A DNA stretch of 64,000 bases from assembly GCA_963666935.1 (NCBI GenBank), contig OY762936.1:861933-925932 (forward strand). The letters are read 5' to 3'. Below are positions 29,385 to 42,787 of this stretch, in pieces. Each line of letters starts with the position of its first letter. Positions within the stretch are counted from its first letter, which is position 1. The stretch is from Christensenellaceae bacterium (GTDB taxonomy: Bacteria > Bacillota > Clostridia > Christensenellales > CAG-138). Both the position numbers and the translations under genes were made by a program. The notes under the pieces were generated by a model. The model was given only the letters and a program-made list of their open reading frames with translations, did no database searches and was not told the DNA's origin.

Positions 29385-30560
29385 ATGGATTACGCAAAAG
29401 AGTCCCTCAAGAAGCATGAGGAATGGAAAGGCAAGATCGAGGTTATCGCCACTGTCCCCGTTAAAACCAAAGAAGACCTCTCTTTGGCCTATACGCCCGG
29501 CGTAGCGCAACCCTGCCTGGAGATTGAGAAGGACGTGAACAAGAGCTATGACCTGACCCGCCGCCACAACCTGTGTGCCGTAGTGACCGACGGCACCGCG
29601 GTGCTGGGCCTTGGCGACATCGGCCCCGAGGCGGGCATGCCTGTCATGGAAGGCAAGTGCGTGCTGTTCAAAGCCTTTGGTGACGTGGACGCCTTCCCGC
29701 TTTGCGTCAAGAGCAAGGAAGTAGACGATATCGTTAACACCATTTACATGGTCAGCGGCAGCTTCGGCGGCGTGAACCTGGAGGACATTTCCGCGCCCCG
29801 CTGCTTTGAGATCGAGCGTAAACTCAAGGAAAAGTGCGACATCCCGATTTTCCATGACGACCAGCACGGCACAGCCATCATCACCCTAGCCGGATTACTC
29901 AACGCGCTCAAGGTCGTTGGCAAGAAGAAGGAAAACGTGAAGATTGTGACTTCCGGCGCCGGCGCTGCGGCAATTTCCATCACCAAGCTGCTGCTTTCCG
30001 CGGGCTTTACAGATATCACCATGTGCGACCGTACCGGCATCATTTACAAGGGCCGGGAAAAGGGCATGAACTGGATCAAACAGGAAATGGCTGAAATCAC
30101 TAACAAGAGCGGCAACCAGGGATCCATAGCGGATGCACTCATGGGTGCTGACGTGTTTATCGGCGTATCCGGCCCCGGCACCGTGACTACGGATATGGTG
30201 AAGGGCATGGCCAAGGATGCCATCATCTTTGCCTGCGCCAACCCCACGCCGGAAATCTTTCCCGACGAAGCCAAGGCGGGCGGCGCTGCGGTGATTGCCA
30301 CCGGACGGAGCGACTTCCCCAACCAGATCAACAACGTGCTGGCGTTCCCCGGCGTGTTCCGCGGCACCTTCGACGTGCGCGCATCGGATATCAACGAGGA
30401 GATGAAGATGGCCGCCGCCATGGCGCTGGCGAACCTGATTTCGGACGAAGAGCTTTCCCCTGACTACATCATCCCCAAGGCTTTTGACCTGCGAGTGGGC
30501 AAGGCCGTGGCGGCAGCGGTTGCAGAGGCGGCAAAGAAGAGCGGTGTAGCGAGAATATAG
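29385..30560 (+). CDS. NAD(P)-dependent malic enzyme (short form)
   Basis: [52 protein letters not shown] is AAGGAG. Confidence 0.9.
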
Positions 30561-30907: not shown

Positions 30908-31273
30908 TTTGCGGAGAAGTGCTCCGCGAAAGTGCCATGAAGCGCCCGGCACAGAGCGATACAGCTTACCCATCAAGGCCGGCGGACAGGAGCAGAGGGG
31001 AGAGAAAGAGGAGTGGTTTTGTCAAGCGGAATTATTTCGGGCGACAAAGCACGAGTGAAAAAAGTTTTTCTTGGGCGTGAAGGCAGCTGCGAAAAAAACA
31101 ACAGCACAAAATTGCGAATGAATTGTAAAAACACTGAAAATTACGTATATATTTGCAAAAATTAGTGTAGAAATTCCGGTGGATTTATGATAAACTACTT
31201 GAGGAACTTCTTAGCATGCTGATTTTTTTGATTGGTGTGGCTAACAAAAATATTTTGGAAAAGAGGAGCATGT

Positions 31274-31849
31274 ATGATCGAAATCAGGTGGCATGGCCGC
31301 GGCGGACAAGGCGCTAAGACCGCTTCGCTGCTGCTGGCAGATGTTGCGTTCGCCACCGGCATGTATGTTCAGGGATTCCCTGAGTACGGCCCCGAACGCA
31401 TGGGCGCGCCCATCACGGCTTACAATCGCATAAGCCAGGAGAAGGTGACAGTACACTCTAATATTTACGAACCCGATATGGTGGTCGTTGTGGACGAGAC
31501 TTTGATCGAGTCCGTAGACGTGACGGCGGGTTTGAAAAAAGGTGGAAGCGTTATCGTAAATTCCCAGCGCAAGCCCGATGAAATTAAGGCTGAGCTGTCG
31601 AGCAAAGGCTATAACGGCGACATCTATGTTGTCGATGCCAAAGCCGTTTCCGAGAAAAACCTTGGCCGCTATTTGCCCAATACCCCATTGCTTTCCGCAG
31701 TGGTAAAGGTAGCCGGCATTATGGAAAAAGAGGCCTTTTTCAAGAACATGCGCGGCTCTTTTGAACACAAGTTTGCTTCAAAGCCCGAAGTTGTGGAAGG
31801 TAACCTAAACGCGATCCGCGATGCATGGGAGGAGGTCAAGAAAATATGA
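31274..31849 (+). CDS. 2-oxoacid:ferredoxin oxidoreductase gamma subunit
   Basis: MIEIRWHGRGGQGAKTAS... is typical of the Por/Vor gamma subunit. Confidence 0.9.
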   Translation: MIEIRWHGRGGQGAKTASLLLADVAFATGMYVQGFPEYGPERMGAPITAYNRISQEKVTVHSNIYEPDMVVVVDETLIESVDVTAGLKKGGSVIVNSQRKPDEIKAELSSKGYNGDIYVVDAKAVSEKNLGRYLPNTPLLSAVVKVAGIMEKEAFFKNMRGSFEHKFASKPEVVEGNLNAIRDAWEEVKKI

Positions 31850-32154
31850 GCAAGAACCTAATGGAAAAAATTAACACCAACAGCACTGCCTCTGAAATGA
31901 CCCCCGGCGGCATGGTATACGGCAGCGGCAATTCCTTTTACTTTAATACCGGCGAATGGCGTACCCAAACCCCGGTATGGCATCCCGAAAAGTGCAAGCA
32001 GTGCCTGCTTTGCTTCCCGGTCTGCCCCGACAGCAGCATTCCCGTGGCAGATGGTAAGCGCGGCGATTTTGACTTTGACCACTGCAAAGGCTGCGGCATT
32101 TGCGCGAAGGTTTGCCCGTTTGGCGCAATCACCTTTGAAGAGGAGGCTAAATAA
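31846..32154 (+). CDS. 2-oxoacid:ferredoxin oxidoreductase delta subunit (2x 4Fe-4S)
   Basis: CKQCLLCFPVCP and CKGCGICAKVCP. The start overlaps the gamma stop. Confidence 0.9.
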   Translation: MSKNLMEKINTNSTASEMTPGGMVYGSGNSFYFNTGEWRTQTPVWHPEKCKQCLLCFPVCPDSSIPVADGKRGDFDFDHCKGCGICAKVCPFGAITFEEEAK

Positions 32155-33333
32155 ATGAGCAAAAAAGATCGCCTTTCCGGTAACGAAGCGGCTGCGGTGG
32201 CAATTCGGCAGATCGACCCCGATGTGGTTGCCGCATTCCCCATTACGCCTTCGACCGAAATCCCCCAGTATGTTTCTATGTTCCAAGCAAACGGCGAACT
32301 CACTTCCGAATTTGTGGCGGTGGAGAGCGAACACAGCGCCATAAGCGCCTGCGTGGGCGCCCAGGCTGCCGGTGTGCGTGCCATGACCGCCACCAGTTCC
32401 TGCGGCCTTGCCCTCATGCATGAAATTCTTTACGTTGCGTCTTCTTCCCGTCTGCCCATTGTGATGGCGGTGGTGAACCGCGCGCTCTCTGCCCCTATCA
32501 ACATCAACAACGACCACAGCGATTCCATGGGTTCCCGCGACAGCGGCTGGATTCAGCTTTACAGCGAAAGCGCCCAGGAAGCCTACGACAACATGCTCAT
32601 GGCGAACCGCATTGCGGAGCACAAGGACGTGCAGCTGCCCATCATGATCTGCCAAGATGGCTTTATTACCAGCCATGCCGTGGAGAATATTGTCCTTGAG
32701 GACGACGAGTTTGCAAAGAAATTCGTGGGTCAGTACAAGCCTGAAAAGTATATGCTCAACCCCAAGGAATCCCTGTCCGTTGGCCCCTATGATATTTCTT
32801 CCTACTACATGGAACACAAATATCAGCAGACCGAAGCCCTCCGGGAATCCATTAAGGTGATTCGTGAAGTCAGCGCTGCATACGGCAAGGCCACTGGCCG
32901 CACCTATGACCTGATCGAGAAGTACAAGATGGAAGATGCGGAATATGCCCTCATGGCCATTGGTTCCTCTGCCGGCACCGGCAAGGCTGCGGTGGACGTG
33001 TTGCGCGCGCAGGGCAAGAAGGTGGGCCTGATCAAGGTTCGCTGCTTCAATCCCTTCCCCGTGGATGACATCATTGAGGCTGTCAAGAACGTGAAGGTCT
33101 TGGGTCTCATGGACAAGACCGACAGCTTCAACGGCTTCGGCGGCCCCTTGGGCGCTTTGGTGCGCGCTGCTATGTATGGAAAGTGCGACGGCATCAAGAC
33201 AATCAACTATGTTTATGGCCTTGGCGGACGCGACGTGAGCGTCGATACTTTCTACGGGGCCTACGCAGAGCTTGAAGAGATTGCGAAGGGCAAGGAAGTT
33301 CCTGCCTACCGTTATCTCGACACCAGAATTTGA
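32155..33333 (+). CDS. 2-oxoacid:ferredoxin oxidoreductase alpha subunit
   Basis: LSGNEAAAVA...FPITPSTEI...ESEHSA...TATSSCGLALM. Confidence 0.9.
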   Translation: MSKKDRLSGNEAAAVAIRQIDPDVVAAFPITPSTEIPQYVSMFQANGELTSEFVAVESEHSAISACVGAQAAGVRAMTATSSCGLALMHEILYVASSSRLPIVMAVVNRALSAPININNDHSDSMGSRDSGWIQLYSESAQEAYDNMLMANRIAEHKDVQLPIMICQDGFITSHAVENIVLEDDEFAKKFVGQYKPEKYMLNPKESLSVGPYDISSYYMEHKYQQTEALRESIKVIREVSAAYGKATGRTYDLIEKYKMEDAEYALMAIGSSAGTGKAAVDVLRAQGKKVGLIKVRCFNPFPVDDIIEAVKNVKVLGLMDKTDSFNGFGGPLGALVRAAMYGKCDGIKTINYVYGLGGRDVSVDTFYGAYAELEEIAKGKEVPAYRYLDTRI

Positions 33334-33346
33334 AAGGAGTATCGCA

Positions 33347-34279
33347 ATGGCTTATAATTTGAAAGAACTCGCTAACAGGCCGGAGCGCTTGGCTCCCGGA
33401 CATCGCATGTGTGCAGGTTGCGGCGGCCCCATTGCCGTTCGTAGCGTCCTGCGTGCGCTGAAACCTGAAGATCGCGCGGTGGTTGCTACCGCAACCGGCT
33501 GTCTGGAAGTTTCCACCTGTATGTATCCCTATACTTCATGGACCGATAGCTGGATTCACACCGCCTTTGAAAATGCTTCCGCCACTTTGAGCGGCGCCGA
33601 AGCGGCATACTGTGCCATGAAGAAGAAGGGCAAGTTGGACGAGACCTTTAAGTTCATCGCGTTCGGCGGCGACGGCAGCAGCTATGATATCGGCTTCCAG
33701 TCCCTGTCCGGCGCTATGGAGCGCAACCATGACATGGTATACGTTTGCTACGACAATGAAGCTTACATGAACACCGGGATTCAGCGGTCCTCTTCCACAC
33801 CTAAGTATGCCAACACCACGACGTCTGCCATTGGCTCTCAGAGCAACGGTAAGGTTCAGGTGAAGAAGGATCTGACCAAGATCATCGCCATGCATCACGT
33901 GCCCTATGTGGCGCAGACCACCTTCATTGGCAATATGAGCGACCTGCACAAGAAAGCGGAAAAGGCCCTCTACACCCCCGGCGCCGCATTCCTGGCCGTT
34001 ATGGCGCCCTGCCCCCGCGGCTGGCGCTATGAGGCTGCCGACATCATGAAGGTCTGCAAGGCGGCTGTTGAAACTTGCGTTTGGCCCATGTATGAGTACA
34101 TCGAAGGCAAGTGGATTTTGAGCTACAAGCCCAAGAACAAGCTGCCCGTGGAAGATTACCTCAAGACGCAGGGCCGGTTCAGCCACTTGTTCAAGAAGGG
34201 CAACGAAGACCTTATCGCCGAGATTCAGGCTGATGTGGACACCCGTTGGGCAGAGCTGCTGAGGCTTTGCGAAGAGTAA
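33347..34279 (+). CDS. 2-oxoacid:ferredoxin oxidoreductase beta subunit (TPP-binding)
   Basis: GHRMCAGCGG...GGDGSSYDIGFQSLSGA...YDNEAYMNTGIQRS. Confidence 0.9.
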   Translation: MAYNLKELANRPERLAPGHRMCAGCGGPIAVRSVLRALKPEDRAVVATATGCLEVSTCMYPYTSWTDSWIHTAFENASATLSGAEAAYCAMKKKGKLDETFKFIAFGGDGSSYDIGFQSLSGAMERNHDMVYVCYDNEAYMNTGIQRSSSTPKYANTTTSAIGSQSNGKVQVKKDLTKIIAMHHVPYVAQTTFIGNMSDLHKKAEKALYTPGAAFLAVMAPCPRGWRYEAADIMKVCKAAVETCVWPMYEYIEGKWILSYKPKNKLPVEDYLKTQGRFSHLFKKGNEDLIAEIQADVDTRWAELLRLCEE

Positions 34280-34350: not shown

Positions 34351-34460
34351 GCACAAAAAAAGCAGCTTTTTGCTGCTTTTAATCAAAGCCCTAAAATTTC
34401 AGTGAACAAAGATCCCAAATCGGAGGACAATATTTTCTGACCACATAGAACTGCTGCATT

Positions 34461-34501
34461 AAAAAAAGGGCATTGGAAGCGAATTCCAATGCCCTTTTTT
34501 T
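34461..34501. terminator. Bidirectional terminator
   Basis: A7-GGGCATTGGA-AGCGAAT-TCCAATGCCC-T7, immediately 3' of the minus-strand HAD gene. Confidence 0.85.
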
Positions 34502-34504
34502 GAG

Positions 34505-35212
34505 TTATTTATAGTTGTAGAAATCTGCGCCTTCTGTTGCCATGAGCTTGATAACCATGGCCAGAGTCTTCATATCGCCGACCATGAAGGTTTCCCAAAC
34601 GTCCAAAGGACGAGGTTCGCCTTGACGGTTAACCCAGCAGGTCTTGTAGCCTAGCTCAGTACCCGGAACGATGTCATATTTGAAGCCGAAGCCCGCATGA
34701 AGGATGTCCTTTTCGGTGAGGCCCAGACGCTTCTGGGAGAGGAAGAAACCCTTGTGGCTGGGCTTGTAAGCGCCGGCCATCTCTGCGGTTACGATATCGT
34801 CAAACTCGACACCAATCTGCTTTACGGATTCTTTGATGATGTCGTTATCAGTGTTGGTGATCAGGGTGACCTTGGTGTACTTCTTGAGCTCAAGGAGCGC
34901 ATCGTGAGAATCCGGGAAAGGCTGCCATTTGCCCATGGAATCCGCAAATTCTTCGGCATCCTGGTTGGTGAAGGAGAAGCCGAACTCTTTGCAGGTCATG
35001 CCCATGGTATCCTTCAGAACCTGGAAATAGGGGCGGTACTGCTCCTGAATGTAATTGAACTGGAGCTCTTCCCATCTGCGCTGAATAGTCTTAGGCGCAA
35101 TGCCTTCGATGCCCTTCTTTTCCATAAAGGCTTTAAAGTACTTCTGAATTTCGCCTTCCCAGTCGATTATGGTGCCAAAGTTGTCAAAAGATATTGCTTT
35201 CGGTGCTGCCAT
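34505..35212 (-). CDS. HAD superfamily hydrolase, type II haloacid dehalogenase-like
   Basis: Nucleophile motif SFDNFGTIIDWE, cap region, ITNTDND and AGAYKPSHKGF. Confidence 0.75.
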   Translation of the reverse strand: MAAPKAISFDNFGTIIDWEGEIQKYFKAFMEKKGIEGIAPKTIQRRWEELQFNYIQEQYRPYFQVLKDTMGMTCKEFGFSFTNQDAEEFADSMGKWQPFPDSHDALLELKKYTKVTLITNTDNDIIKESVKQIGVEFDDIVTAEMAGAYKPSHKGFFLSQKRLGLTEKDILHAGFGFKYDIVPGTELGYKTCWVNRQGEPRPLDVWETFMVGDMKTLAMVIKLMATEGADFYNYK

Positions 35213-35348: not shown

Positions 35349-35377
35349 ATTATAGTATCCGAACGGACAAAAGTCAA
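35349..35377 (-). promoter_or_regulatory. Near-consensus promoter for the HAD gene, overlapping the larA stop codon
   Basis: Minus strand: TTGACT (35377-72), 17-nt spacer, TATAAT (35354-49). About 130 nt of 5' leader follows. Confidence 0.7.
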
Positions 35378-36627
35378 CCCTTGCAGCAGCGGGGAAGCGT
35401 GGAACCGCCATAAGGCATGGCGAGAATGGATGCGTTCTTGCCCAGTTTGGCAAAGGCTGCGTCCAGCGCGGCCTGCGCGTTGGGATAAGGCGTCAGGAAA
35501 ATGCTCTTCACAAAATCGGGTGCCATATCGCTTACCAGATAGATGTCGGAATTTTCCAGCACCATGGCAATCGCGGCCGCCTTGTGACCGCCCAGACGAA
35601 ATTCTTTTTGAATCCGGTCAATGAGACTGCTGGCGGTAGGTGCGCTGGTCATCCATTCTTCAAAGACGTGCTCGCCCATTCCTTCTTTGCAGGAACCGAT
35701 CAGGATGATGACACCGCCTTTTTTCACAGCATGCTTGGCATTGTCCAGCGCTTTTTGGGTTTGGTAGAGATTCAGATCCTTTGGGGCGCCGCCCTGAGAA
35801 ACCAGGACGATATCCGCCCGCTCGGGGATTCGCTTCATATAGAGGTCATCCAAAAAGGAACAGCCTTCCCGATGGGCGTATTTGGCATCTCCGGCCACGG
35901 CTTTGATGATCTTCTTATGTTCATCCAACACCACATTGAGGAGGAAGTCGATGCCAACCATGGCGGCGGCCTCTTCAATGTCCTCTCGGACTGGATTACC
36001 TTTGATGCGGCCGGCGCAGGCGGTTTCCTCCACCATCCGGCTGTGATTGCTCTGGATGGCGTCCCGGGTGGAGACTCCGGGCATGATGGATTTTGCGCCG
36101 CCGGAATAACCGGCAAAGTAGTGGTACTCAATATTCGCCAGACAAATGCGGCGGTCCGCTTCCGCCACCACGCGGACGATATCCACCGGCGTGCCCCGGG
36201 AAGTGACCCCGATATGCACACAATCGCTGGCATCGCCGTCGATGCATGCAATTTCGGACCAAGCGCGGTCACCTGCCAGCTTATGCCGTTCCGCTTCGGT
36301 ATGCATTCTATGACTGCCCAGGGCGAACACCAGCGTGATATCCTGTTTGCTGATTCCCGCGGCATAGAGTTCATCCAGTAAAGCGGGCATCACAATATGT
36401 GTGGGCATGGGGCGCGTGATGTCGCTGGTGACGATGGCGATTTTTTCGCCCGGCTTGACGATATCCCGAAGGGCGGGGGAGTGAACCGGTGCGGCAAGAG
36501 CCCTTTCAACCTCATCCTCGCCGGTGAGACCCACCGGCATGGGGTTGGGCGATAGAATGCCAAGCAGACTCTTTGAGGGAACTTCGACGCATTGGGTACC
36601 GGCGCCGAATCCAAATTCCAATTTCAT
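35374..36627 (-). CDS. larA: LarA family nickel-pincer-dependent 2-hydroxyacid racemase/epimerase
   Basis: DUF2088/LarA architecture: ITRPMP, HRMHTEAE, YHYFAGYSGGAKS, QGGAPKDLNLYQ and GGHKAAAIA. The substrate cannot be read from the sequence. Confidence 0.8.
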   Translation of the reverse strand: MKLEFGFGAGTQCVEVPSKSLLGILSPNPMPVGLTGEDEVERALAAPVHSPALRDIVKPGEKIAIVTSDITRPMPTHIVMPALLDELYAAGISKQDITLVFALGSHRMHTEAERHKLAGDRAWSEIACIDGDASDCVHIGVTSRGTPVDIVRVVAEADRRICLANIEYHYFAGYSGGAKSIMPGVSTRDAIQSNHSRMVEETACAGRIKGNPVREDIEEAAAMVGIDFLLNVVLDEHKKIIKAVAGDAKYAHREGCSFLDDLYMKRIPERADIVLVSQGGAPKDLNLYQTQKALDNAKHAVKKGGVIILIGSCKEGMGEHVFEEWMTSAPTASSLIDRIQKEFRLGGHKAAAIAMVLENSDIYLVSDMAPDFVKSIFLTPYPNAQAALDAAFAKLGKNASILAMPYGGSTLPRCCKG

Positions 36628-36730
36628 AGTTATCACCCATTTCTATTACAAATTTAGAATTATGTGCATTAAACAACAACTATACAATATATCTTTGCCG
36701 GGCGCAACGTCAAGAGATTTAATTTCCAAA

Positions 36731-36992
36731 AAGACCATGCGATATCTGAAAGGACCAGGACCAGGTATTTTTAACGATGCATGTAAAAAAACACTAGACT
36801 TTGCAACAAGAAAGGATTATCCTTAAAAGGACCAAGCGACATAGGGAAGGACCAGAAACGGCGACGGGAATCCCTTGAAGAATCAGAGACCTCATGATAA
36901 AATCAGTTAAATATTTAGGGAGAAACATCCCGATATGAGAACCGGATTTTGCAAGGTCCGTAACGCTGCCGAAAAGACGTTTGGCCAGACCA
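36731..36992 (+). promoter_or_regulatory. Array of AGGACCA-like direct repeats in the larA/gntR divergent region
   Basis: AAGACCA 36731. AGGACCA at 36751, 36758, 36828 and 36848. CAGACCA 36986. Inverted GGTCC at 36955. Confidence 0.4.
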
Positions 36993-37012
36993 TATAACCG
37001 GGAAGTGACACT

Positions 37013-37735
37013 ATGCATTTGTTGTATGCAGATGTTGCAGAAAAAATTGAGCGGCAAATCCGTAACTCCGATTGGCCGATTGGAACGCAGTTGCCTTCCG
37101 AACGGAAATTGGCGGATCAATACCACGTGAGCCGCAACGTAGTGCGACGGGCCTTGAGCCAGCTTAAAGAGGGCGAACTTATTGAGTTGAAGCCGGGCGA
37201 TGGCGCATATGTGACTTACCGATGCGACGAGAAGTCGTTGCTGCATATGGTTGCGCTGAAAAACATGATGATAAAAAACGACGTCACTTTTTTACAAGCG
37301 CTGGAAGTACGGCAAATGCTGGAAGTGGCCATTGTCAAAAAGTGCGTTCCGTACATGGATGGCGATAAGATGGAGACACTGGAAGACCTTTATGATGAGA
37401 TGGAGAAATGCCACAATTGCCGGGATATTGATCGGTTCGTCAAGTACGATACCCAGTTTCACGATTCTCTGGCCCGATGCATTCCCAACCCTATGTTCCA
37501 TCTTCTGCTCAAGACTTATATGGACATTGTGCCGGACTTTACCGTTATGAGTCGGACGCTCAACGCCGTATTTTTTGACATGCAGAGCACGCAAGAGGAG
37601 CACCGAACCATACTGGATGCCCTTTATGCCCACGATGAGGCGAAGGCCGAGAAAGCTATGCTGGAGCATATGCGGAAGATCCGCCGGGATTTGGAACAGC
37701 TAAAAAACAAGCGAATCCCGGAGGATGAAAAATAG
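37013..37735 (+). CDS. GntR family transcriptional regulator (FadR/FCD subfamily)
   Basis: N-terminal wHTH (GTQLPSERKLADQYHVSRNVVRRAL) plus a C-terminal all-helical FCD-type domain. Confidence 0.9.
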   Translation: MHLLYADVAEKIERQIRNSDWPIGTQLPSERKLADQYHVSRNVVRRALSQLKEGELIELKPGDGAYVTYRCDEKSLLHMVALKNMMIKNDVTFLQALEVRQMLEVAIVKKCVPYMDGDKMETLEDLYDEMEKCHNCRDIDRFVKYDTQFHDSLARCIPNPMFHLLLKTYMDIVPDFTVMSRTLNAVFFDMQSTQEEHRTILDALYAHDEAKAEKAMLEHMRKIRRDLEQLKNKRIPEDEK

Positions 37736-37798
37736 CGAAGGACGCGACAATGCCGCGTGCTAATATATAAATCATTTTTTGTGATAGGAGATGCAACT

Positions 37799-39163
37799 AT
37801 GGAAGCAAATGAATACGTAAGTGGGTTGATCGCCAAGGGCCGCGTGGCGCAGAAGGCATTCGAATCCATGACGCAGGAGCAGGTCGACGCTATCGTGCGC
37901 GCCATTGCCAAGACGGTGTTTGACAACGCTGAAATGCTGGCCCGCATGGCCGTGGACGAGACCCGCATGGGTGTCTATGAGCACAAGGTCAAAAAGAATC
38001 AGGGAAAGGCCCGCATCATCTGGCACGAGCTCAAGGGCAAGAAGAGCATTGGGATTATTAATGAGTATCCCGAGCTGGGTCTGGTTGAGGTGGCGAAGCC
38101 CATGGGCGTTATCGGCGCCATCACGCCTACCACCAACCCCATCGTTACCCCCATGTGCAACGCTATGTTTGCGCTCAAGGGACACAACGCCATCGTCATC
38201 TGCCCCCATCCCCGCGCCAAGGACTGCAGCACCAAGACCGTTGAGCTGATCAACGAGGCCATTGCCAAGCTGGGCGCTCCCGAAAACCTGATCCAGGTGA
38301 TCGCCGACCCCACTGTGGAACTTTCTGGCCAGGTTATGAAGCAGGCGGACGTTTGCATTTCCACCGGCGGCATGGGCATGATCCGCGCGGCATACTCTTC
38401 CGGAAAGCCCGCCTTTGGCGTAGGCGCCGGCAACGTACAGTGCATGGTGGACGAAGGCGTAAATCTGGAGGAGGCTATCCCCTTGATCATCGCCGGCCGT
38501 GAGTTCGATAACGGCATCATCTGCTCTGGCGAACAGACCGCCATTATGCCCGAGAAGGACTACGACAAGGGCGTTGCCATCTTCCAGAAGAACGGCGCTC
38601 ATTACGTTGATGACCCCAAGGAAATCGACGCGCTGCGCGCCATCCTGTTCCCGGACGGCATCATGAACAAGGACTGCGTTGGCAAGAGCGCCAACCAGAT
38701 CGCTGCGCTGGCCGGCATCAAGGCGCCCGCCGGTACCCGCGTACTGCTGGTGAAGGCCCCTGGTTACGGCAAGGCTGACATGTATGCCAAGGAGAAGATG
38801 TGCCCCGTGATCGCTGCTTATTCCTACAAGACCTGGGAAGAGGCCGTGGCGATTGCCGATGCCAACCTGAACGTAGAGGGTAAAGGCCACAGCGTTTGCA
38901 TCCATTCTAACAATAAGGCAAACGTGGAATATGCTGCGTTGAAGCTGCCCGTTTCCCGCTTCGTGATCAACCAGATCTGCTCCACCAGCAACGGCGGTAG
39001 CTTCTCTAACTCCCTTTCCGCCACCACGACGCTTGGCTGCGGCAGCTGGGGCAACAACTCTATCAGCGAAAACTTGAGCTGGAAGCACCTGTTCAACGTC
39101 AGCCGCATCGCCTATGTGCGTCCCGGCAGCAGAGTGCCTTCTGACGAAGAAATCTGGGGGTAA
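37799..39163 (+). CDS. CoA-acylating aldehyde dehydrogenase, SucD-type (succinate-semialdehyde dehydrogenase, acylating-like)
   Basis: End-to-end resemblance to Clostridium kluyveri SucD: TPTTNPIVTPMCNAM, FDNGIICSGEQ, TTTLGCGSWGNNSISENL, VPSDEEIWG. ATG 37799 follows AGGAGA. Confidence 0.8.
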   Translation: MEANEYVSGLIAKGRVAQKAFESMTQEQVDAIVRAIAKTVFDNAEMLARMAVDETRMGVYEHKVKKNQGKARIIWHELKGKKSIGIINEYPELGLVEVAKPMGVIGAITPTTNPIVTPMCNAMFALKGHNAIVICPHPRAKDCSTKTVELINEAIAKLGAPENLIQVIADPTVELSGQVMKQADVCISTGGMGMIRAAYSSGKPAFGVGAGNVQCMVDEGVNLEEAIPLIIAGREFDNGIICSGEQTAIMPEKDYDKGVAIFQKNGAHYVDDPKEIDALRAILFPDGIMNKDCVGKSANQIAALAGIKAPAGTRVLLVKAPGYGKADMYAKEKMCPVIAAYSYKTWEEAVAIADANLNVEGKGHSVCIHSNNKANVEYAALKLPVSRFVINQICSTSNGGSFSNSLSATTTLGCGSWGNNSISENLSWKHLFNVSRIAYVRPGSRVPSDEEIWG

Positions 39164-39169
39164 TACTGA

Positions 39170-40327
39170 ATGAAATTACTTGAATACAAGGCAAAAGAGC
39201 TGTTCGAAAAATACGGCATTCGCACCATGCGGGGCTGTGTTGTGGACAGCGCCGAGGGGATGGAGAAGGTCATCGCCGATGCGAACCTCTCTTACCCAGT
39301 GGTGATCAAAGCACAGGTGCAGATCGGCGGCCGCGGCAAGGCCGGCGGAATTCAATTCGCCGACAACGCCAAAGAAGCGGAAGCACACTGCCGCCGCCTT
39401 CTGGGCAGCGATTTAAGAGGCCTGACCGTGCGTCAGCTCCTCATTGTGGAAAAAGCTTCCTTTAAAACGGAATGGTACATTTCCATTATGCTGGACAGGC
39501 TCACCAAGTGCCCCATGATTATTTTCTCCGCCAACGGCGGTATGGAAATTGAGCAGACGGCGAAGGAAGCTCCTGAAAAGATTGTGAAGGTGGTCATTGA
39601 CCCCCTGATGGGATTCCGGCCCTACATGGCAGAGTATATGCTCAGCAAGAGCAACCTGCCCCTATCCTATAAAAAGGAGCTCATCAATCTGGTGAGCAAG
39701 CTCTACAAAGCGTTTATGGAGTACCACTGCATGCTATGCGAGATCAATCCGCTGGTGATTGCGGATGACGATACCCTGATCGCGTTGGACGGTAAGGTGG
39801 ACATCGACGACAGCGCACTGTATAAGCTGCCCGACATGATGGCTTTCCGGGAGGAACTTTATGAAGAACCCCTGGTTCGAGAAGCCCGCCACAACGACTT
39901 CCTGTATATCCCCGTGGAAGAGGGCGGCACCGTTGCCGTGACCTCCAACGGCTCCGGCATGCTCATGAGCTGCATCGACCTCATCACCAAAGAGGGTATT
40001 AAAATCGGCGCGGCGCTTGATCTGGGCGGCGGCGCCACCGCGGAACGCATTGAAAAGGCCATCCGCATTCTGTTCTCCACCCCCGGCGTGAAGGCCGTTC
40101 TCATCAACATTTTCGGGGGCATCACCCGCTGTGATGAAGTTGCCGGCGGCGTGAAGCTGGCCATGGAACACGGCTACTGTGAAGGTAAGATCATCGTGGT
40201 TCGCATGGAAGGTACCAACAAGGAAAAGGGTCTGGAAATCATCAACTCCCTAGGTGGAGACATCATCAACGTGCCCGGCCTCAGAGAGAGCGTCAAGGCC
40301 CTGGTGGACAGGAGGGATCGTCTATGA
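39170..40327 (+). CDS. sucC: Succinyl-CoA synthetase (ADP-forming) beta subunit-like
   Basis: ATP-grasp N-terminus MKLLEYKAKELFEKYGI...VIKAQVQIGGRGKAGG. Confidence 0.85.
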   Translation: MKLLEYKAKELFEKYGIRTMRGCVVDSAEGMEKVIADANLSYPVVIKAQVQIGGRGKAGGIQFADNAKEAEAHCRRLLGSDLRGLTVRQLLIVEKASFKTEWYISIMLDRLTKCPMIIFSANGGMEIEQTAKEAPEKIVKVVIDPLMGFRPYMAEYMLSKSNLPLSYKKELINLVSKLYKAFMEYHCMLCEINPLVIADDDTLIALDGKVDIDDSALYKLPDMMAFREELYEEPLVREARHNDFLYIPVEEGGTVAVTSNGSGMLMSCIDLITKEGIKIGAALDLGGGATAERIEKAIRILFSTPGVKAVLINIFGGITRCDEVAGGVKLAMEHGYCEGKIIVVRMEGTNKEKGLEIINSLGGDIINVPGLRESVKALVDRRDRL

Positions 40328-41208
40328 GCATCATTATCGACCAGAACACCAAGCTCATCGTGCAGGGCATTACCGGCCGCGAGGGCACGTTCCACACGGA
40401 GCAGATGCTGGCCTACGGTACCAAAGTTGTGGGCGGCGTAACCCCCGGTAAAGGTGGCCAGAAAGTGCTGGGCGTGCCGGTATTCAACACCGTGCGCGAA
40501 GCCGTGGAAGCCACCGGCGCAGACTCCACCGTGGTTTTTGTTCCTGCAAAGTATATGAAGGCTTCTGTTGAAGAAGCGCTGGACGCCGGAGTGAAAAACA
40601 TCTTTACCATTGCCGAGCATGTGCCGGTGCATGAGATGATGATTTGCTACCATCTGGCACACAAAAAGGGTGCGCGGCTGTTTGGGCCCAACTCTTTCGG
40701 CGTGATTTCCCCGGGTAAGACCAAGGCAGGATTTATGGCGCACCGGATATTCTCCCCCGGAAACGTCGGCGTCATGAGCCGCAGCGCCACCAACTGCTAC
40801 GAGACCGTGTTTATGATGACTAGCAACGGCTTCGGCCAGTCCACTTGCGTGGGCGTGGGTGGCGACATGATCCCCGGATCCACATTTGTGGACCTGCTGC
40901 CTGACTTCAACGCAGATCCAGAGACCAAGGCCATTATCATCATCGGCGAAATCGGCGGCAACGAGGAAGAGCTGGCGGCTGCGTACATCAAGGAACACAT
41001 TAAGAAGCCCGTCATTGCTCTTATCGTGGGCAAGAACGCTCCCAAGGGCCGCAGCATGGGCCACGCGGGTGCCATTGTGAGCGCAGACGGTACTGGCAGC
41101 GCGCAGAACAAGGAAAAAGTGCTCAAGGAAGCCGGCGTTATCATCGCCGAGAGCACCCAGCACATTGTCGATATTCTTCAGGATTTGCGCAAAGAGGGAA
41201 AGATCTGA
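40324..41208 (+). CDS. sucD: Succinyl-CoA synthetase alpha subunit-like
   Basis: VQGITGREGTFH, GVTPGKGG and the catalytic-His region MGHAGAIV. The start overlaps the upstream stop. Confidence 0.9.
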   Translation: MSIIIDQNTKLIVQGITGREGTFHTEQMLAYGTKVVGGVTPGKGGQKVLGVPVFNTVREAVEATGADSTVVFVPAKYMKASVEEALDAGVKNIFTIAEHVPVHEMMICYHLAHKKGARLFGPNSFGVISPGKTKAGFMAHRIFSPGNVGVMSRSATNCYETVFMMTSNGFGQSTCVGVGGDMIPGSTFVDLLPDFNADPETKAIIIIGEIGGNEEELAAAYIKEHIKKPVIALIVGKNAPKGRSMGHAGAIVSADGTGSAQNKEKVLKEAGVIIAESTQHIVDILQDLRKEGKI

Positions 41209-41554: not shown

Positions 41555-42742
41555 ATGAAACTGTCCGATTTTTCCTACAACACGCAGGTACTTTACAAGG
41601 GTGACAAGGTAAAGGGCTGCGAGATTCAGCCTGAATCTGCGGCGATTTTCCTGACTTCCGCCTTTGATCTTCCCGGCGATTTGGATGACGTCAACAAAGT
41701 TTACGAATCCAAGGGATATGGATATATTCGCGGACGGAACCCAAACCGCCATATGCTGGCGGACAAGATTACCTTTTTGGAGGGCGGCGAGGACAGCGTG
41801 ATTTGCTCTGCCGGCATGGGGGTCATTATCACGACGCTGTTCACCTTCTTAAAGGGTGGAGATCACATTTTGGCCAGCGACACCCTTTATGGGGAAAGCT
41901 TGGAATTCATCGAGATGCTGGAAGAGTACGGCATCGAGCATACTTTTGTGCGCTTCAGTGACCTTGATGCTATCAAAGCCGCAATCCGGCCCAACACCAA
42001 GATGGTTTATAGCGAGACCATCAGCAACCCCAGCATCGACCTGATGGACGTGGAAGAAGTGGCAAAAGTGGCCCATGCCAACGGCGCGCTGCTGGTTCTG
42101 GATAACACCTTCGGGACTCCTTTCGCCATGAAAGTGCTGGAAATGGGTGCGGATCTGTCGATCAACAGCATGACCAAGTTCATCAACGGCCACAGCGATG
42201 CCCTGCTGGGCTCCGTTACCGGCTCCCATAAGCTCATCGATCAGATTTTGCCCAAGGCGTCGCTTATGGGCACCACCGGCGGCACATTCAGCACTTGGCT
42301 GGTGAACCGCAGCATGCTGACCCTTGAACTGCGCATCAAGCGGCAGATGGAGAACGCCGCCAAGATCGCGGCGGCGCTGGAAAAGAACCCACATGTAAAC
42401 AAAGTGTTTTATCCCACTGCCTCTAATTATGCCAAAAAGGAACTGGTTAAGAAAGTATTTAAGTTCGGTTACTACGGCGCCATGCTCAGCTTCCAGATCA
42501 AGGGCGACCGGCCCGAGGTCAATACCTTTATGAAAAATCTGACGCTGGTGCATTATGCGCCCACCCTCGGTGGCGTAAGAACTACCATGGCGAATCCCTA
42601 TACGTCTTCTCACCGGCATTTACCCCAAGAGATGAAAGATGAGCTGGGCATCACTCCCGGTCTCATTCGCCTCTCTGTGGGCATCGAGGATGCAAACGAT
42701 CTGATTGCAGATCTGAACTATGCCCTCAATGCCATCGGCTGA
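41555..42742 (+). CDS. Cys/Met-metabolism PLP-dependent enzyme (cystathionine gamma-synthase / methionine gamma-lyase family)
   Basis: SMTKFINGHSD (PLP lysine) and the family-wide fold. RBS is AGGAGGT. Confidence 0.85.
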   Translation: MKLSDFSYNTQVLYKGDKVKGCEIQPESAAIFLTSAFDLPGDLDDVNKVYESKGYGYIRGRNPNRHMLADKITFLEGGEDSVICSAGMGVIITTLFTFLKGGDHILASDTLYGESLEFIEMLEEYGIEHTFVRFSDLDAIKAAIRPNTKMVYSETISNPSIDLMDVEEVAKVAHANGALLVLDNTFGTPFAMKVLEMGADLSINSMTKFINGHSDALLGSVTGSHKLIDQILPKASLMGTTGGTFSTWLVNRSMLTLELRIKRQMENAAKIAAALEKNPHVNKVFYPTASNYAKKELVKKVFKFGYYGAMLSFQIKGDRPEVNTFMKNLTLVHYAPTLGGVRTTMANPYTSSHRHLPQEMKDELGITPGLIRLSVGIEDANDLIADLNYALNAIG

Positions 42743-42755
42743 TTAATAACGTAAA

Positions 42756-42787
42756 GGACCGGCAATTTGCCGGTCCTTTTTTTTTTG
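42756..42787 (+). terminator. Rho-independent terminator
   Basis: GGACCGGC-AATTT-GCCGGTCC followed by T10. Confidence 0.9.

Follow-up and report, generated by a model that had tools for sequence, protein, structure and literature searches.

The stretch of DNA analysed here (the window; 64,000 nucleotides, G000:C1:861933-925932) belongs to the single-contig, 2.44-Mb, 96% complete genome of a Christensenellaceae bacterium. It contains two divergent units: genes for a LarA homologue and a type II haloacid dehalogenase-like (HAD) hydrolase on the minus strand, and genes for a GntR-family regulator, a CoA-acylating aldehyde dehydrogenase (ALDH) and a SucCD-like ADP-forming acyl-CoA ligase on the plus strand. 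By sequence comparison the region was recognised as a rearranged copy of a catabolic gene set that is widely conserved among many anaerobic Clostridia. With a probability of roughly one half, the encoded enzymes would act in the order HAD hydrolase, aminotransferase, acylating ALDH and SucCD (with formation of ATP) to yield D-malate, which would be converted into L-malate by LarA and into pyruvate by malic enzyme (ME). The HAD/aminotransferase feeder, the azetidine compound that is its candidate substrate and the predicted stereochemical need for a racemase would be the new elements of this route.

Conserved neighbourhoods were examined from the ALDH gene (37757-39163, plus strand). Gene calls were based on an open reading frame (ORF) listing and on Pfam and NCBIfam scans of the window proteins, by which all genes named in an initial annotation of this DNA were found to be present and were confirmed one by one. 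The genome collection was scanned with the ALDH, and the loci were compared by ORF clustering and with tblastn panels. Eighty loci with ALDHs of 58-74% identity were obtained, 70 of them of the variant type described below. A recurrent operon of the form [GntR][ME] ALDH-SucC-SucD-[E1alpha-E1beta-E2-E3]-[LarA] was recognised. SucCD was present at 59 of the 70 variant-ALDH loci, a PDH/Aco-like E1 at about 41, LarA (47-77% identity) at 34 and malic enzyme at 26. At four loci a TTC-family tartrate/D-malate dehydrogenase (TIGR02089, 513 bits versus a cut-off of 470) occupied the usual LarA position, and the operon ended with it instead of with LarA and ME. LarA, ME or TTC was encoded at 25 of the 33 variant-ALDH loci that had full flanks. 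The window ME (29385-30560, plus strand; NAD(P) type, Pfam malic and Malic_M) is 61-84% identical to the MEs of the conserved operons in other genomes. Minimal forms, for example ALDH-LarA-ME, were also observed. The adjacency noticed in the initial annotation is non-random, the same ALDH subtype standing beside SucCD, LarA and ME in dozens of unrelated genomes, and because this neighbourhood is conserved the larA-HAD and gntR-ALDH-sucCD units were regarded as functionally linked. A literature search gave no published account of the ALDH/LarA combination, which agrees with its earlier description as non-textbook.

The feeder genes of these operons were nearly mutually exclusive (E1alpha/E1beta, E2 and E3 at 42 loci, a TAL-like gene at 12, a class-III aminotransferase and/or HAD gene at three; one overlap), a distribution that fits one common aldehyde supplied by differing routes. 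Three arrangements were seen in which HAD and aminotransferase genes adjoin the genes of the set. L185 and L186 read LysR<>HAD-aminotransferase-LarA-ME; L061 has the same order continued by an ALDH and a family III CoA-transferase, and then by a Na:alanine-type symporter, a Cys/Met-metabolism pyridoxal phosphate (PLP) enzyme and an M20 peptidase; and L091 reads aminotransferase-ALDH-SucCD-ME-LarA-HAD. HAD-aminotransferase-non-acylating ALDH was found in L184 (a Bacillus) and in L191, where B3_4, GntR/FCD, EamA and a TTC-type dehydrogenase follow. This dehydrogenase is 74% identical to that of ALDH-SucCD-E1E2E3 clusters, and the L191 cluster is of an aerobic type.

The two other feeder types are as follows. 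The E1alpha/E1beta/E2/E3 lipoamide complex, of the pyruvate dehydrogenase (PDH)/acetoin dehydrogenase type, is encoded between SucD and LarA (for example, in L035, L053, L068 and L085), sometimes with a lipoate-protein ligase; it may oxidise the pyruvate end-product or form the aldehyde by an acetoin-type cleavage. The E1 and E2 subunits of these loci score highest as PDH-type, and a search of the window genome for a PDH-like E1/E2 homologue found none. The TAL/FSA-like feeder, an uncharacterised protein of 458 aa, has a 140-aa N-terminal extension besides a weak transaldolase/FSA domain, and gave no NCBIfam match. Its gene was found directly 5' of LarA-ALDH-SucCD, beside TTT (TctABC) or TRAP transporters, in L034, L037, L039, L040, L044, L049, L050 and L059.

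The ALDH gave 547.9 bits against C. kluyveri SucD (CkSucD; PDB 8cei), far above its scores of about 318-330 bits against acetaldehyde dehydrogenases. The catalytic residues Cys242 and His364 of CkSucD are kept as C256 and H378, and its distal-carboxylate ligands Lys70 and Ser243 (PMC10249356) as K84 and S257. Its acyl-pocket loop, NQICSTSNGG, follows the motif NQ[IV]C[SA]TxNGG of nearly all homologues in SucCD/LarA/ME contexts. The motif is NQP[SAC]ST[ST]AGG, or a close variant of it, in CkSucD and in 10 homologues whose contexts are abfD-cat2-4hbD, gabT-only or orphan. All 55 variant-motif ALDHs were split from the classic SucDs by one branch of the tree (SH-aLRT 95.7). By loop and tree position, the window enzyme was placed in a variant subclade of SucD-type enzymes, distinct from the classic SucD clade.

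The genes for the ligase subunits SucC (beta, 39170-40327) and SucD (alpha, 40324-41208) follow on the plus strand and overlap by 4 nt. In NCBIfam both proteins exceed the cut-offs for succinate-CoA ligase subunits, by a narrow margin in the case of beta (NF001913, 380.7 bits versus 370; alpha, NF004230, 375.3 bits versus 336). The alpha subunit contains the GHAGA phospho-His loop and keeps the Tyr that binds the C4 carboxylate of succinate in pig succinyl-CoA synthetase (SCS). Two of its motifs differ from those of E. coli: GPNSFGVISPG versus GPNCPGVITPG, with GPNSFG throughout a set of 45 sequences (the window and 44 cluster members), and SRSATNCYETV versus SRSGTLTYEAV, the variant being present in 43 of the same 45. 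For the beta subunit a comparison of 52 sequences (the window and 51 cluster members) showed GIT in place of GIV throughout. GIT was considered as a mark of a non-succinate substrate and rejected: the best PDB match of SucC, the genuine SCS of Thermus (3ufx, 265.7 bits), likewise has GIT, so that the motif is not diagnostic. Because the ALDH and SucCD belong to distinct subfamilies with changed substrate-site motifs, the convergence of the neighbouring activities on succinyl-CoA that had been put forward in the initial annotation is doubtful.

The larA product (35374-36636, minus strand; Lar_N and LarA_C) gave 566.6 bits on NCBIfam NF052593, the nickel-dependent malate racemase LarAH6 family (equivalog cut-off 500), and 404.7 bits against the crystal structure of Mar2 (6d6z). 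Residues named by Desguin et al. (2020; PMC7583248) for catalysis, nickel-pincer nucleotide (NPN) binding and substrate recognition in LarA/Mar2 were located in the alignment. The catalytic residues D72, H109, H172 and K295 (reference D72, H108, H174 and K298), the NPN ligands R75, K182 and H198 (reference R75, K184 and H200) and the substrate signature H172-Y173, Q294-K295 and G350-H351-K352 (GHK, helix 14) are all present. Each of the 29 aligned LarAs from the clusters keeps the catalytic and NPN residues, and the loop motif was also seen in 40 orthologues from across the class. Lys173 of Mar2 is replaced by Phe in the window protein, in the 29 cluster-associated LarAs and in the 40 orthologues sampled across the class; as Phe is common to every LarAH6 orthologue sampled, it was regarded as the family norm. 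The reading of H-Y-F for the H-Y-K of Mar2 as a hint of another substrate was rejected, all sampled LarAH6 orthologues having H-Y/W-F. On these signatures the window LarA is predicted to be an NPN-dependent malate racemase of the LarAH6/Mar2 family, which narrows a choice of substrates that had been left wide.

Malate racemases have been described as the largest group of the LarA superfamily (PMC11770544), and their in vivo role was explicitly left open (PMC7583248). The lack of larB, larC and larE reported earlier holds within the window, but not for the genome: all three genes were found at G000:C1:1374851-1377264, over their cut-offs and 475 kb from the window genes. This larE-larB-larC group adjoins a second, distant LarA paralogue (together G000:C1:1372132-1377264), and the genome has four Lar_N-containing genes in total.

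The HAD hydrolase (34505-35212, minus strand; TIGR01428, 130 bits versus a cut-off of 125.4) is of the dehalogenase type. Its motif I is D10-N-F-G-T, without the second Asp of the phosphatase type, and the conserved residues N120 and K150 are present. In type II HAD dehalogenases the Asp attacks C2 with net inversion, and an L-2-substituted acid is converted into a D-2-hydroxy acid. The best PDB matches were 8hp5 (104.7 bits) and L-azetidine-2-carboxylate hydrolase (3smv/8ywo/9v14; 98.3 bits), the latter being the nearest homologue that has been characterised; L-DEX gave 64 bits. Asp12, Tyr14, Trp20, Tyr64 and Asn122 have been named as pocket residues of the azetidine hydrolase (bioRxiv 10.64898/2026.09.25.754441). 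In a match that is weak overall (98.3 bits), the window HAD keeps four of these five residues (D10, W18, Y62 and N120); Phe takes the place of the fifth, Tyr14, in the window HAD, but 70 of 119 family members have Tyr. The hydrolase product, 2-hydroxy-4-aminobutyrate, is reported to go on by way of a 4-aminobutyrate (GABA)-transaminase route (PMC8016842; bioRxiv 10.64898/2026.09.25.754441). An orthologue of the class-III aminotransferase found in the operons (63-70% identity) is encoded in the window genome, alone, at G000:C1:1269824-1271170.

From the observed gene identities, families, signature residues, conserved neighbourhoods and alternative end modules we infer the substrates, direction of flux and stereochemistry that follow. 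The substrate of the HAD hydrolase would be an L-2-substituted 4-aminobutyrate, attacked at C2 with inversion. L-Azetidine-2-carboxylate is the strongest candidate, and its opening would yield (R)-2-hydroxy-4-aminobutyrate. The separately encoded aminotransferase would convert this into (R)-2-hydroxy-4-oxobutanoate (D-malate semialdehyde), most likely the aldehyde in question. The variant ALDH would then form a thioester of the malyl-CoA type, from which the variant SucCD would release D-malate with synthesis of ATP from ADP and Pi; in L061 a CoA-transferase would do so instead. Given inversion at C2 by the HAD hydrolase, D-malate would arise and a racemase would be needed. The Mar2-type LarA would supply L-malate, and ME would decarboxylate it to pyruvate and CO2; where TTC takes the place of LarA and ME, D-malate would pass directly to pyruvate. 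Such downstream action on a D-malate product is more likely than the feeding of a 2-hydroxyacid into a succinyl-CoA pool, the role suggested for the racemase at first.

It is proposed more tentatively, and with the odds against it, that L-azetidine-2-carboxylate, a toxic amino acid of plants, is fermented with a net gain of ATP by this HAD-to-ME route in gut Clostridia and in anaerobes that degrade plant biomass. The compound might be taken up free, or be freed from nicotianamine-type compounds by the paired Cys/Met gamma-lyases encoded near HAD genes; if the gamma-lyases were involved, a 2-oxoacid:ferredoxin oxidoreductase (OFOR) could oxidise the resulting 2-oxobutyrate.

Several observations weigh against the route from the HAD hydrolase to pyruvate. 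The alignment with the azetidine hydrolase covers only residues 5-197 at 98.3 bits, and the family-invariant HAGFGFKYD of the window HAD stands where that enzyme has HTAESLYHD; for the latter reason the azetidine hydrolase was treated as a homologue and not as an established orthologue. In the window genome the aminotransferase gene is 370 kb away. The ME gene is separated from the module by the OFOR genes and a strong terminator-like hairpin (34459-34503, between OFOR and the HAD gene), and ME, the single tblastn match, is the only malic enzyme of the genome. The distal-carboxylate residues of the ALDH are kept, SucCD passes the succinate-CoA ligase cut-offs, and the GIT of SucC occurs in a genuine SCS. 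When 40 LarAH6 orthologues were sampled evenly across the class, 36 were in unrelated contexts, two were near ALDH-SucCD or E1E2E3 genes and four adjoined ME. With so few near the module, the LarAH6 family was taken to serve several contexts and to be often recruited by the ALDH module. These counts agree with the 15% association with ME reported for LarA group 6, whose published context table is without ALDH, SucCD, HAD or aminotransferase (PMC7583248). Among the 24 family-level representatives searched, LarA was found in four, always without the neighbours seen in the window, and the variant ALDH was absent from all 24.

The best-surviving alternative, which we consider unlikely, is that the ALDH is a genuine succinyl-CoA reductase and SucCD a genuine succinyl-CoA synthetase, which together would link succinate to succinic semialdehyde for a GABA/4-hydroxybutyrate cluster, with LarA and ME only supplying or draining C4 acids. 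The score of the ALDH against CkSucD, the kept equivalents of K70, S243, C242 and H364, and the SucC and SucD scores above the succinate-CoA ligase cut-offs are all as expected on this explanation. A cluster gabT-4hbD-abfD-cat2-thl-crt-hbd is indeed present at G000:C1:2142261-2151781, and the relative G028 has a SucD orthologue in a classic cat1-sucD-4hbD-cat2 cluster. The SucDs of such classic contexts, however, form the separate clade with the other pocket loop, and AbfD was found in 5 of 40 genomes with the window's ALDH-SucCD subtype. The link to a 4-hydroxybutyrate pathway raised in the initial annotation was therefore upheld as far as the existence of a cluster elsewhere in the genome is concerned, but was dropped as an explanation of the regulator-ALDH-SucCD trio. 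The presence of LarA together with ME or D-malate dehydrogenase inside the same operons would also be left unexplained.

The supply of succinate was considered as well. Neither the C-terminal domain of an Frd/Sdh flavoprotein nor a class II fumarase was found in the 96%-complete genome with the queries used; a class I fumarase is encoded at 1872393-1873190. As the Frd/Sdh flavoprotein was not found, no link from malate to succinate was detected, and a connection through malate, fumarate and succinate was dropped. The GABA/4-hydroxybutyrate cluster itself is encoded on the minus strand and comprises genes for a PucR-like regulator, GabT (TIGR00700, over cut-off), a 4hbD-like Fe-ADH, an AbfD-like dehydratase, Cat2/AbfT, thiolase, crotonase and Hbd; it is complete yet without a SucD-type ALDH of its own.

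An explanation in which D- or L-malate is the growth substrate, passing through the racemase and ME to a POR-type OFOR (a PDH-like complex elsewhere) while the ALDH and SucCD act on acetyl-CoA for redox or ATP, was judged improbable. ME and LarA do bracket ALDH-SucCD-E1E2E3 in several genomes, TRAP or TTT carboxylate transporters adjoin some of the loci, and the PDH-type assignment of the E1/E2 subunits would suit it. The ALDH, however, is nearer to SucD than to acetaldehyde dehydrogenases and retains the ligands for a distal carboxylate, and the HAD-aminotransferase operons would be left unexplained. We know of no SucCD-type enzyme that serves as an acetate-CoA ligase.

Little probability was likewise given to a role in sulfonate metabolism, in which the trio would oxidise 3-sulfopropionaldehyde or sulfolactaldehyde to the sulfo-acid with formation of ATP, and LarA and ME would act on sulfolactate-like malate analogues. 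HpfX/HpfYZ and SqwD/SqwKL are homologous pairs of an ALDH and a SucCD-like ligase (PMC11489063), and the TAL/FSA-like gene lies 5' of LarA-ALDH-SucCD at 12 loci. The signatures of HpfYZ are nevertheless lacking, the window ligase having Tyr instead of His in alpha and GIT instead of GIN in beta. LarA passes the malate-racemase family cut-off, ME is a typical malic enzyme, TTC passes the tartrate/D-malate dehydrogenase cut-off, and sulfoquinovose or glycyl-radical genes were not seen at the loci inspected. Least probable is a chance juxtaposition of unrelated genes around one intergenic region, for which family relatives with LarA alone and the split, rearranged order of the window could be cited, since the co-location recurs in dozens of genomes from several families and in varied gene orders.

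Regulation of the two divergent units was considered from the 376-bp spacer between larA and gntR (36637-37012). The spacer contains a direct repeat of 31 nt in two copies, at 36728-36758 and 36825-36855, and each copy holds two A[AG]GACCA sites. Promoter-like sequences of larA (minus strand, 36713..36686) and of gntR (plus strand, 36875..36903) lie on either side. Nowhere else in the 2.44-Mb genome do at least four A[AG]GACCA sites fall within 150 nt, and the paired unit recurs just once, as a chance pair. The array was not found upstream of ME, OFOR, the aminotransferase or other genes, nor at the loci of other genomes. We infer from this arrangement that the repeats are a probable operator array for the GntR/FCD protein (37013-37735, plus strand; Pfam GntR and FCD), which is probably a local regulator of both divergent units. 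As the array is missing upstream of ME, OFOR and the aminotransferase, the predicted regulon was taken to be local to these two units. GntR/FCD genes flank the operon at about 10 other loci; their products are just 21-31% identical to that of the window.

The four-subunit OFOR (31232-34279, plus strand; gamma-delta-alpha-beta, POR-type) was recognised by Pfam POR, Fer4, POR_N and TPP_enzyme_C, with PorA/PorB as the top NCBIfam matches, under cut-off. PorA orthologues were found in three family relatives. In G007, the one inspected, OFOR is not near ME, LarA or HAD, and in the nearest relative with both OFOR and the LarA-region genes these are on different contigs. With its adjacency unconserved in relatives, a functional partnership of OFOR with LarA and the ALDH, as first supposed, was not borne out; because the orthologues lie away from LarA, ME and HAD, OFOR was counted as a neighbour only. 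It could take up pyruvate, and its membership of the module is doubtful.

Further HAD homologues were recorded. A paralogue 59% identical to the window HAD heads a sugar-acid-like operon at G000:C1:2364360-2371754 (IclR<>HAD, IlvD/EDD-family dehydratase, D-2-hydroxyacid dehydrogenase, DUF362 and UxaA-like dehydratase). Elsewhere (L180-L183 and L190) HAD homologues stand beside 2-Hacid_dh, IclR and four-subunit OFOR genes.

Downstream of sucD, the window encodes a Cys/Met-metabolism PLP enzyme of the gamma-lyase/synthase family (41555-42742, plus strand; Pfam PF01053), followed by a strong terminator-like hairpin (42753-42779). Enzymes 45-50% identical to it, often paired, adjoin HAD orthologues in L061, L180/181, L184, L187 and L192, sometimes with a Na:alanine-family symporter. 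The window enzyme is possibly linked to the HAD gene; a 4-substituted 2-aminobutyrate might be its substrate, in a gamma-elimination. A B3_4 domain that forms a protein of its own (PheRS editing-domain fold) is encoded beside HAD, Cys/Met PLP and ALDH genes at L180:1522-2187, L191:4718-5398 and L192:11888-12583, and in the window genome at G000:C1:561101-561760. A role in trans-editing, directed at a mischarged amino-acid analogue, is conceivable.

If the proposed route is correct, it would give a LarA-family malate racemase its first assigned physiological pathway: an operon that makes D-malate and needs either a racemase with ME or a D-malate dehydrogenase would provide such a role. The route would also be a new route of substrate-level phosphorylation and a new member of the small set of modules that convert an aldehyde through an acyl-CoA into an acid and ATP, and it could account for how digester and gut anaerobes handle a toxic plant proline mimic.

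Known systems resemble parts of the route. In the later steps of L-carnitine degradation by Acinetobacter baumannii (PMC11353897), a malic semialdehyde dehydrogenase and a D-malate dehydrogenase reportedly lead to pyruvate. This pathway is a precedent for the conversion of a C4 hydroxy-aldehyde acid into D-malate and then into pyruvate, and differs in having an oxygenase-derived aldehyde and a non-acylating ALDH that yields no ATP, with no racemase. The azetidine hydrolase of Pseudomonas sp. A2C and AzhA of Aspergillus nidulans are, like the window HAD, enzymes with a single nucleophilic Asp that share the pocket residues D, W, Y and N. The class-III aminotransferase that follows HAD in the operons parallels the GABA-transaminase route (PMC8016842). 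The known azetidine hydrolase systems are aerobic and have been studied for detoxification and nitrogen assimilation; no report of an acylating ALDH, a ligase or a racemase with them was found in the literature search.

SucD of C. kluyveri (PDB 8cei; PMC10249356), from the cat1-sucD-4hbD pathway, is the closest solved homologue of the ALDH. Catalytic residues and carboxylate ligands are common to both enzymes, but clade, pocket loop and gene context differ, and AbfD rarely co-occurs with the window type. Mar2 of Thermoanaerobacterium thermosaccharolyticum (PDB 6d6z) belongs to the same family as the window LarA and has in common with it the Tyr after the catalytic His, Q-K and GHK, whereas its K173 is Phe in the window LarA and in all 70 other orthologues checked. 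The two-step ATP logic, in which an ADP-forming SucCD-like ligase acts after an acylating ALDH, is found in HpfX/HpfYZ, which converts 3-sulfopropionaldehyde into 3-sulfopropionate with formation of ATP, and in SqwD/SqwKL (PMC11489063). The alpha His160 and beta GIN of HpfYZ are absent from the window SucCD, and the operons of the window type are distinguished by end modules of malate racemase, ME or D-malate dehydrogenase.

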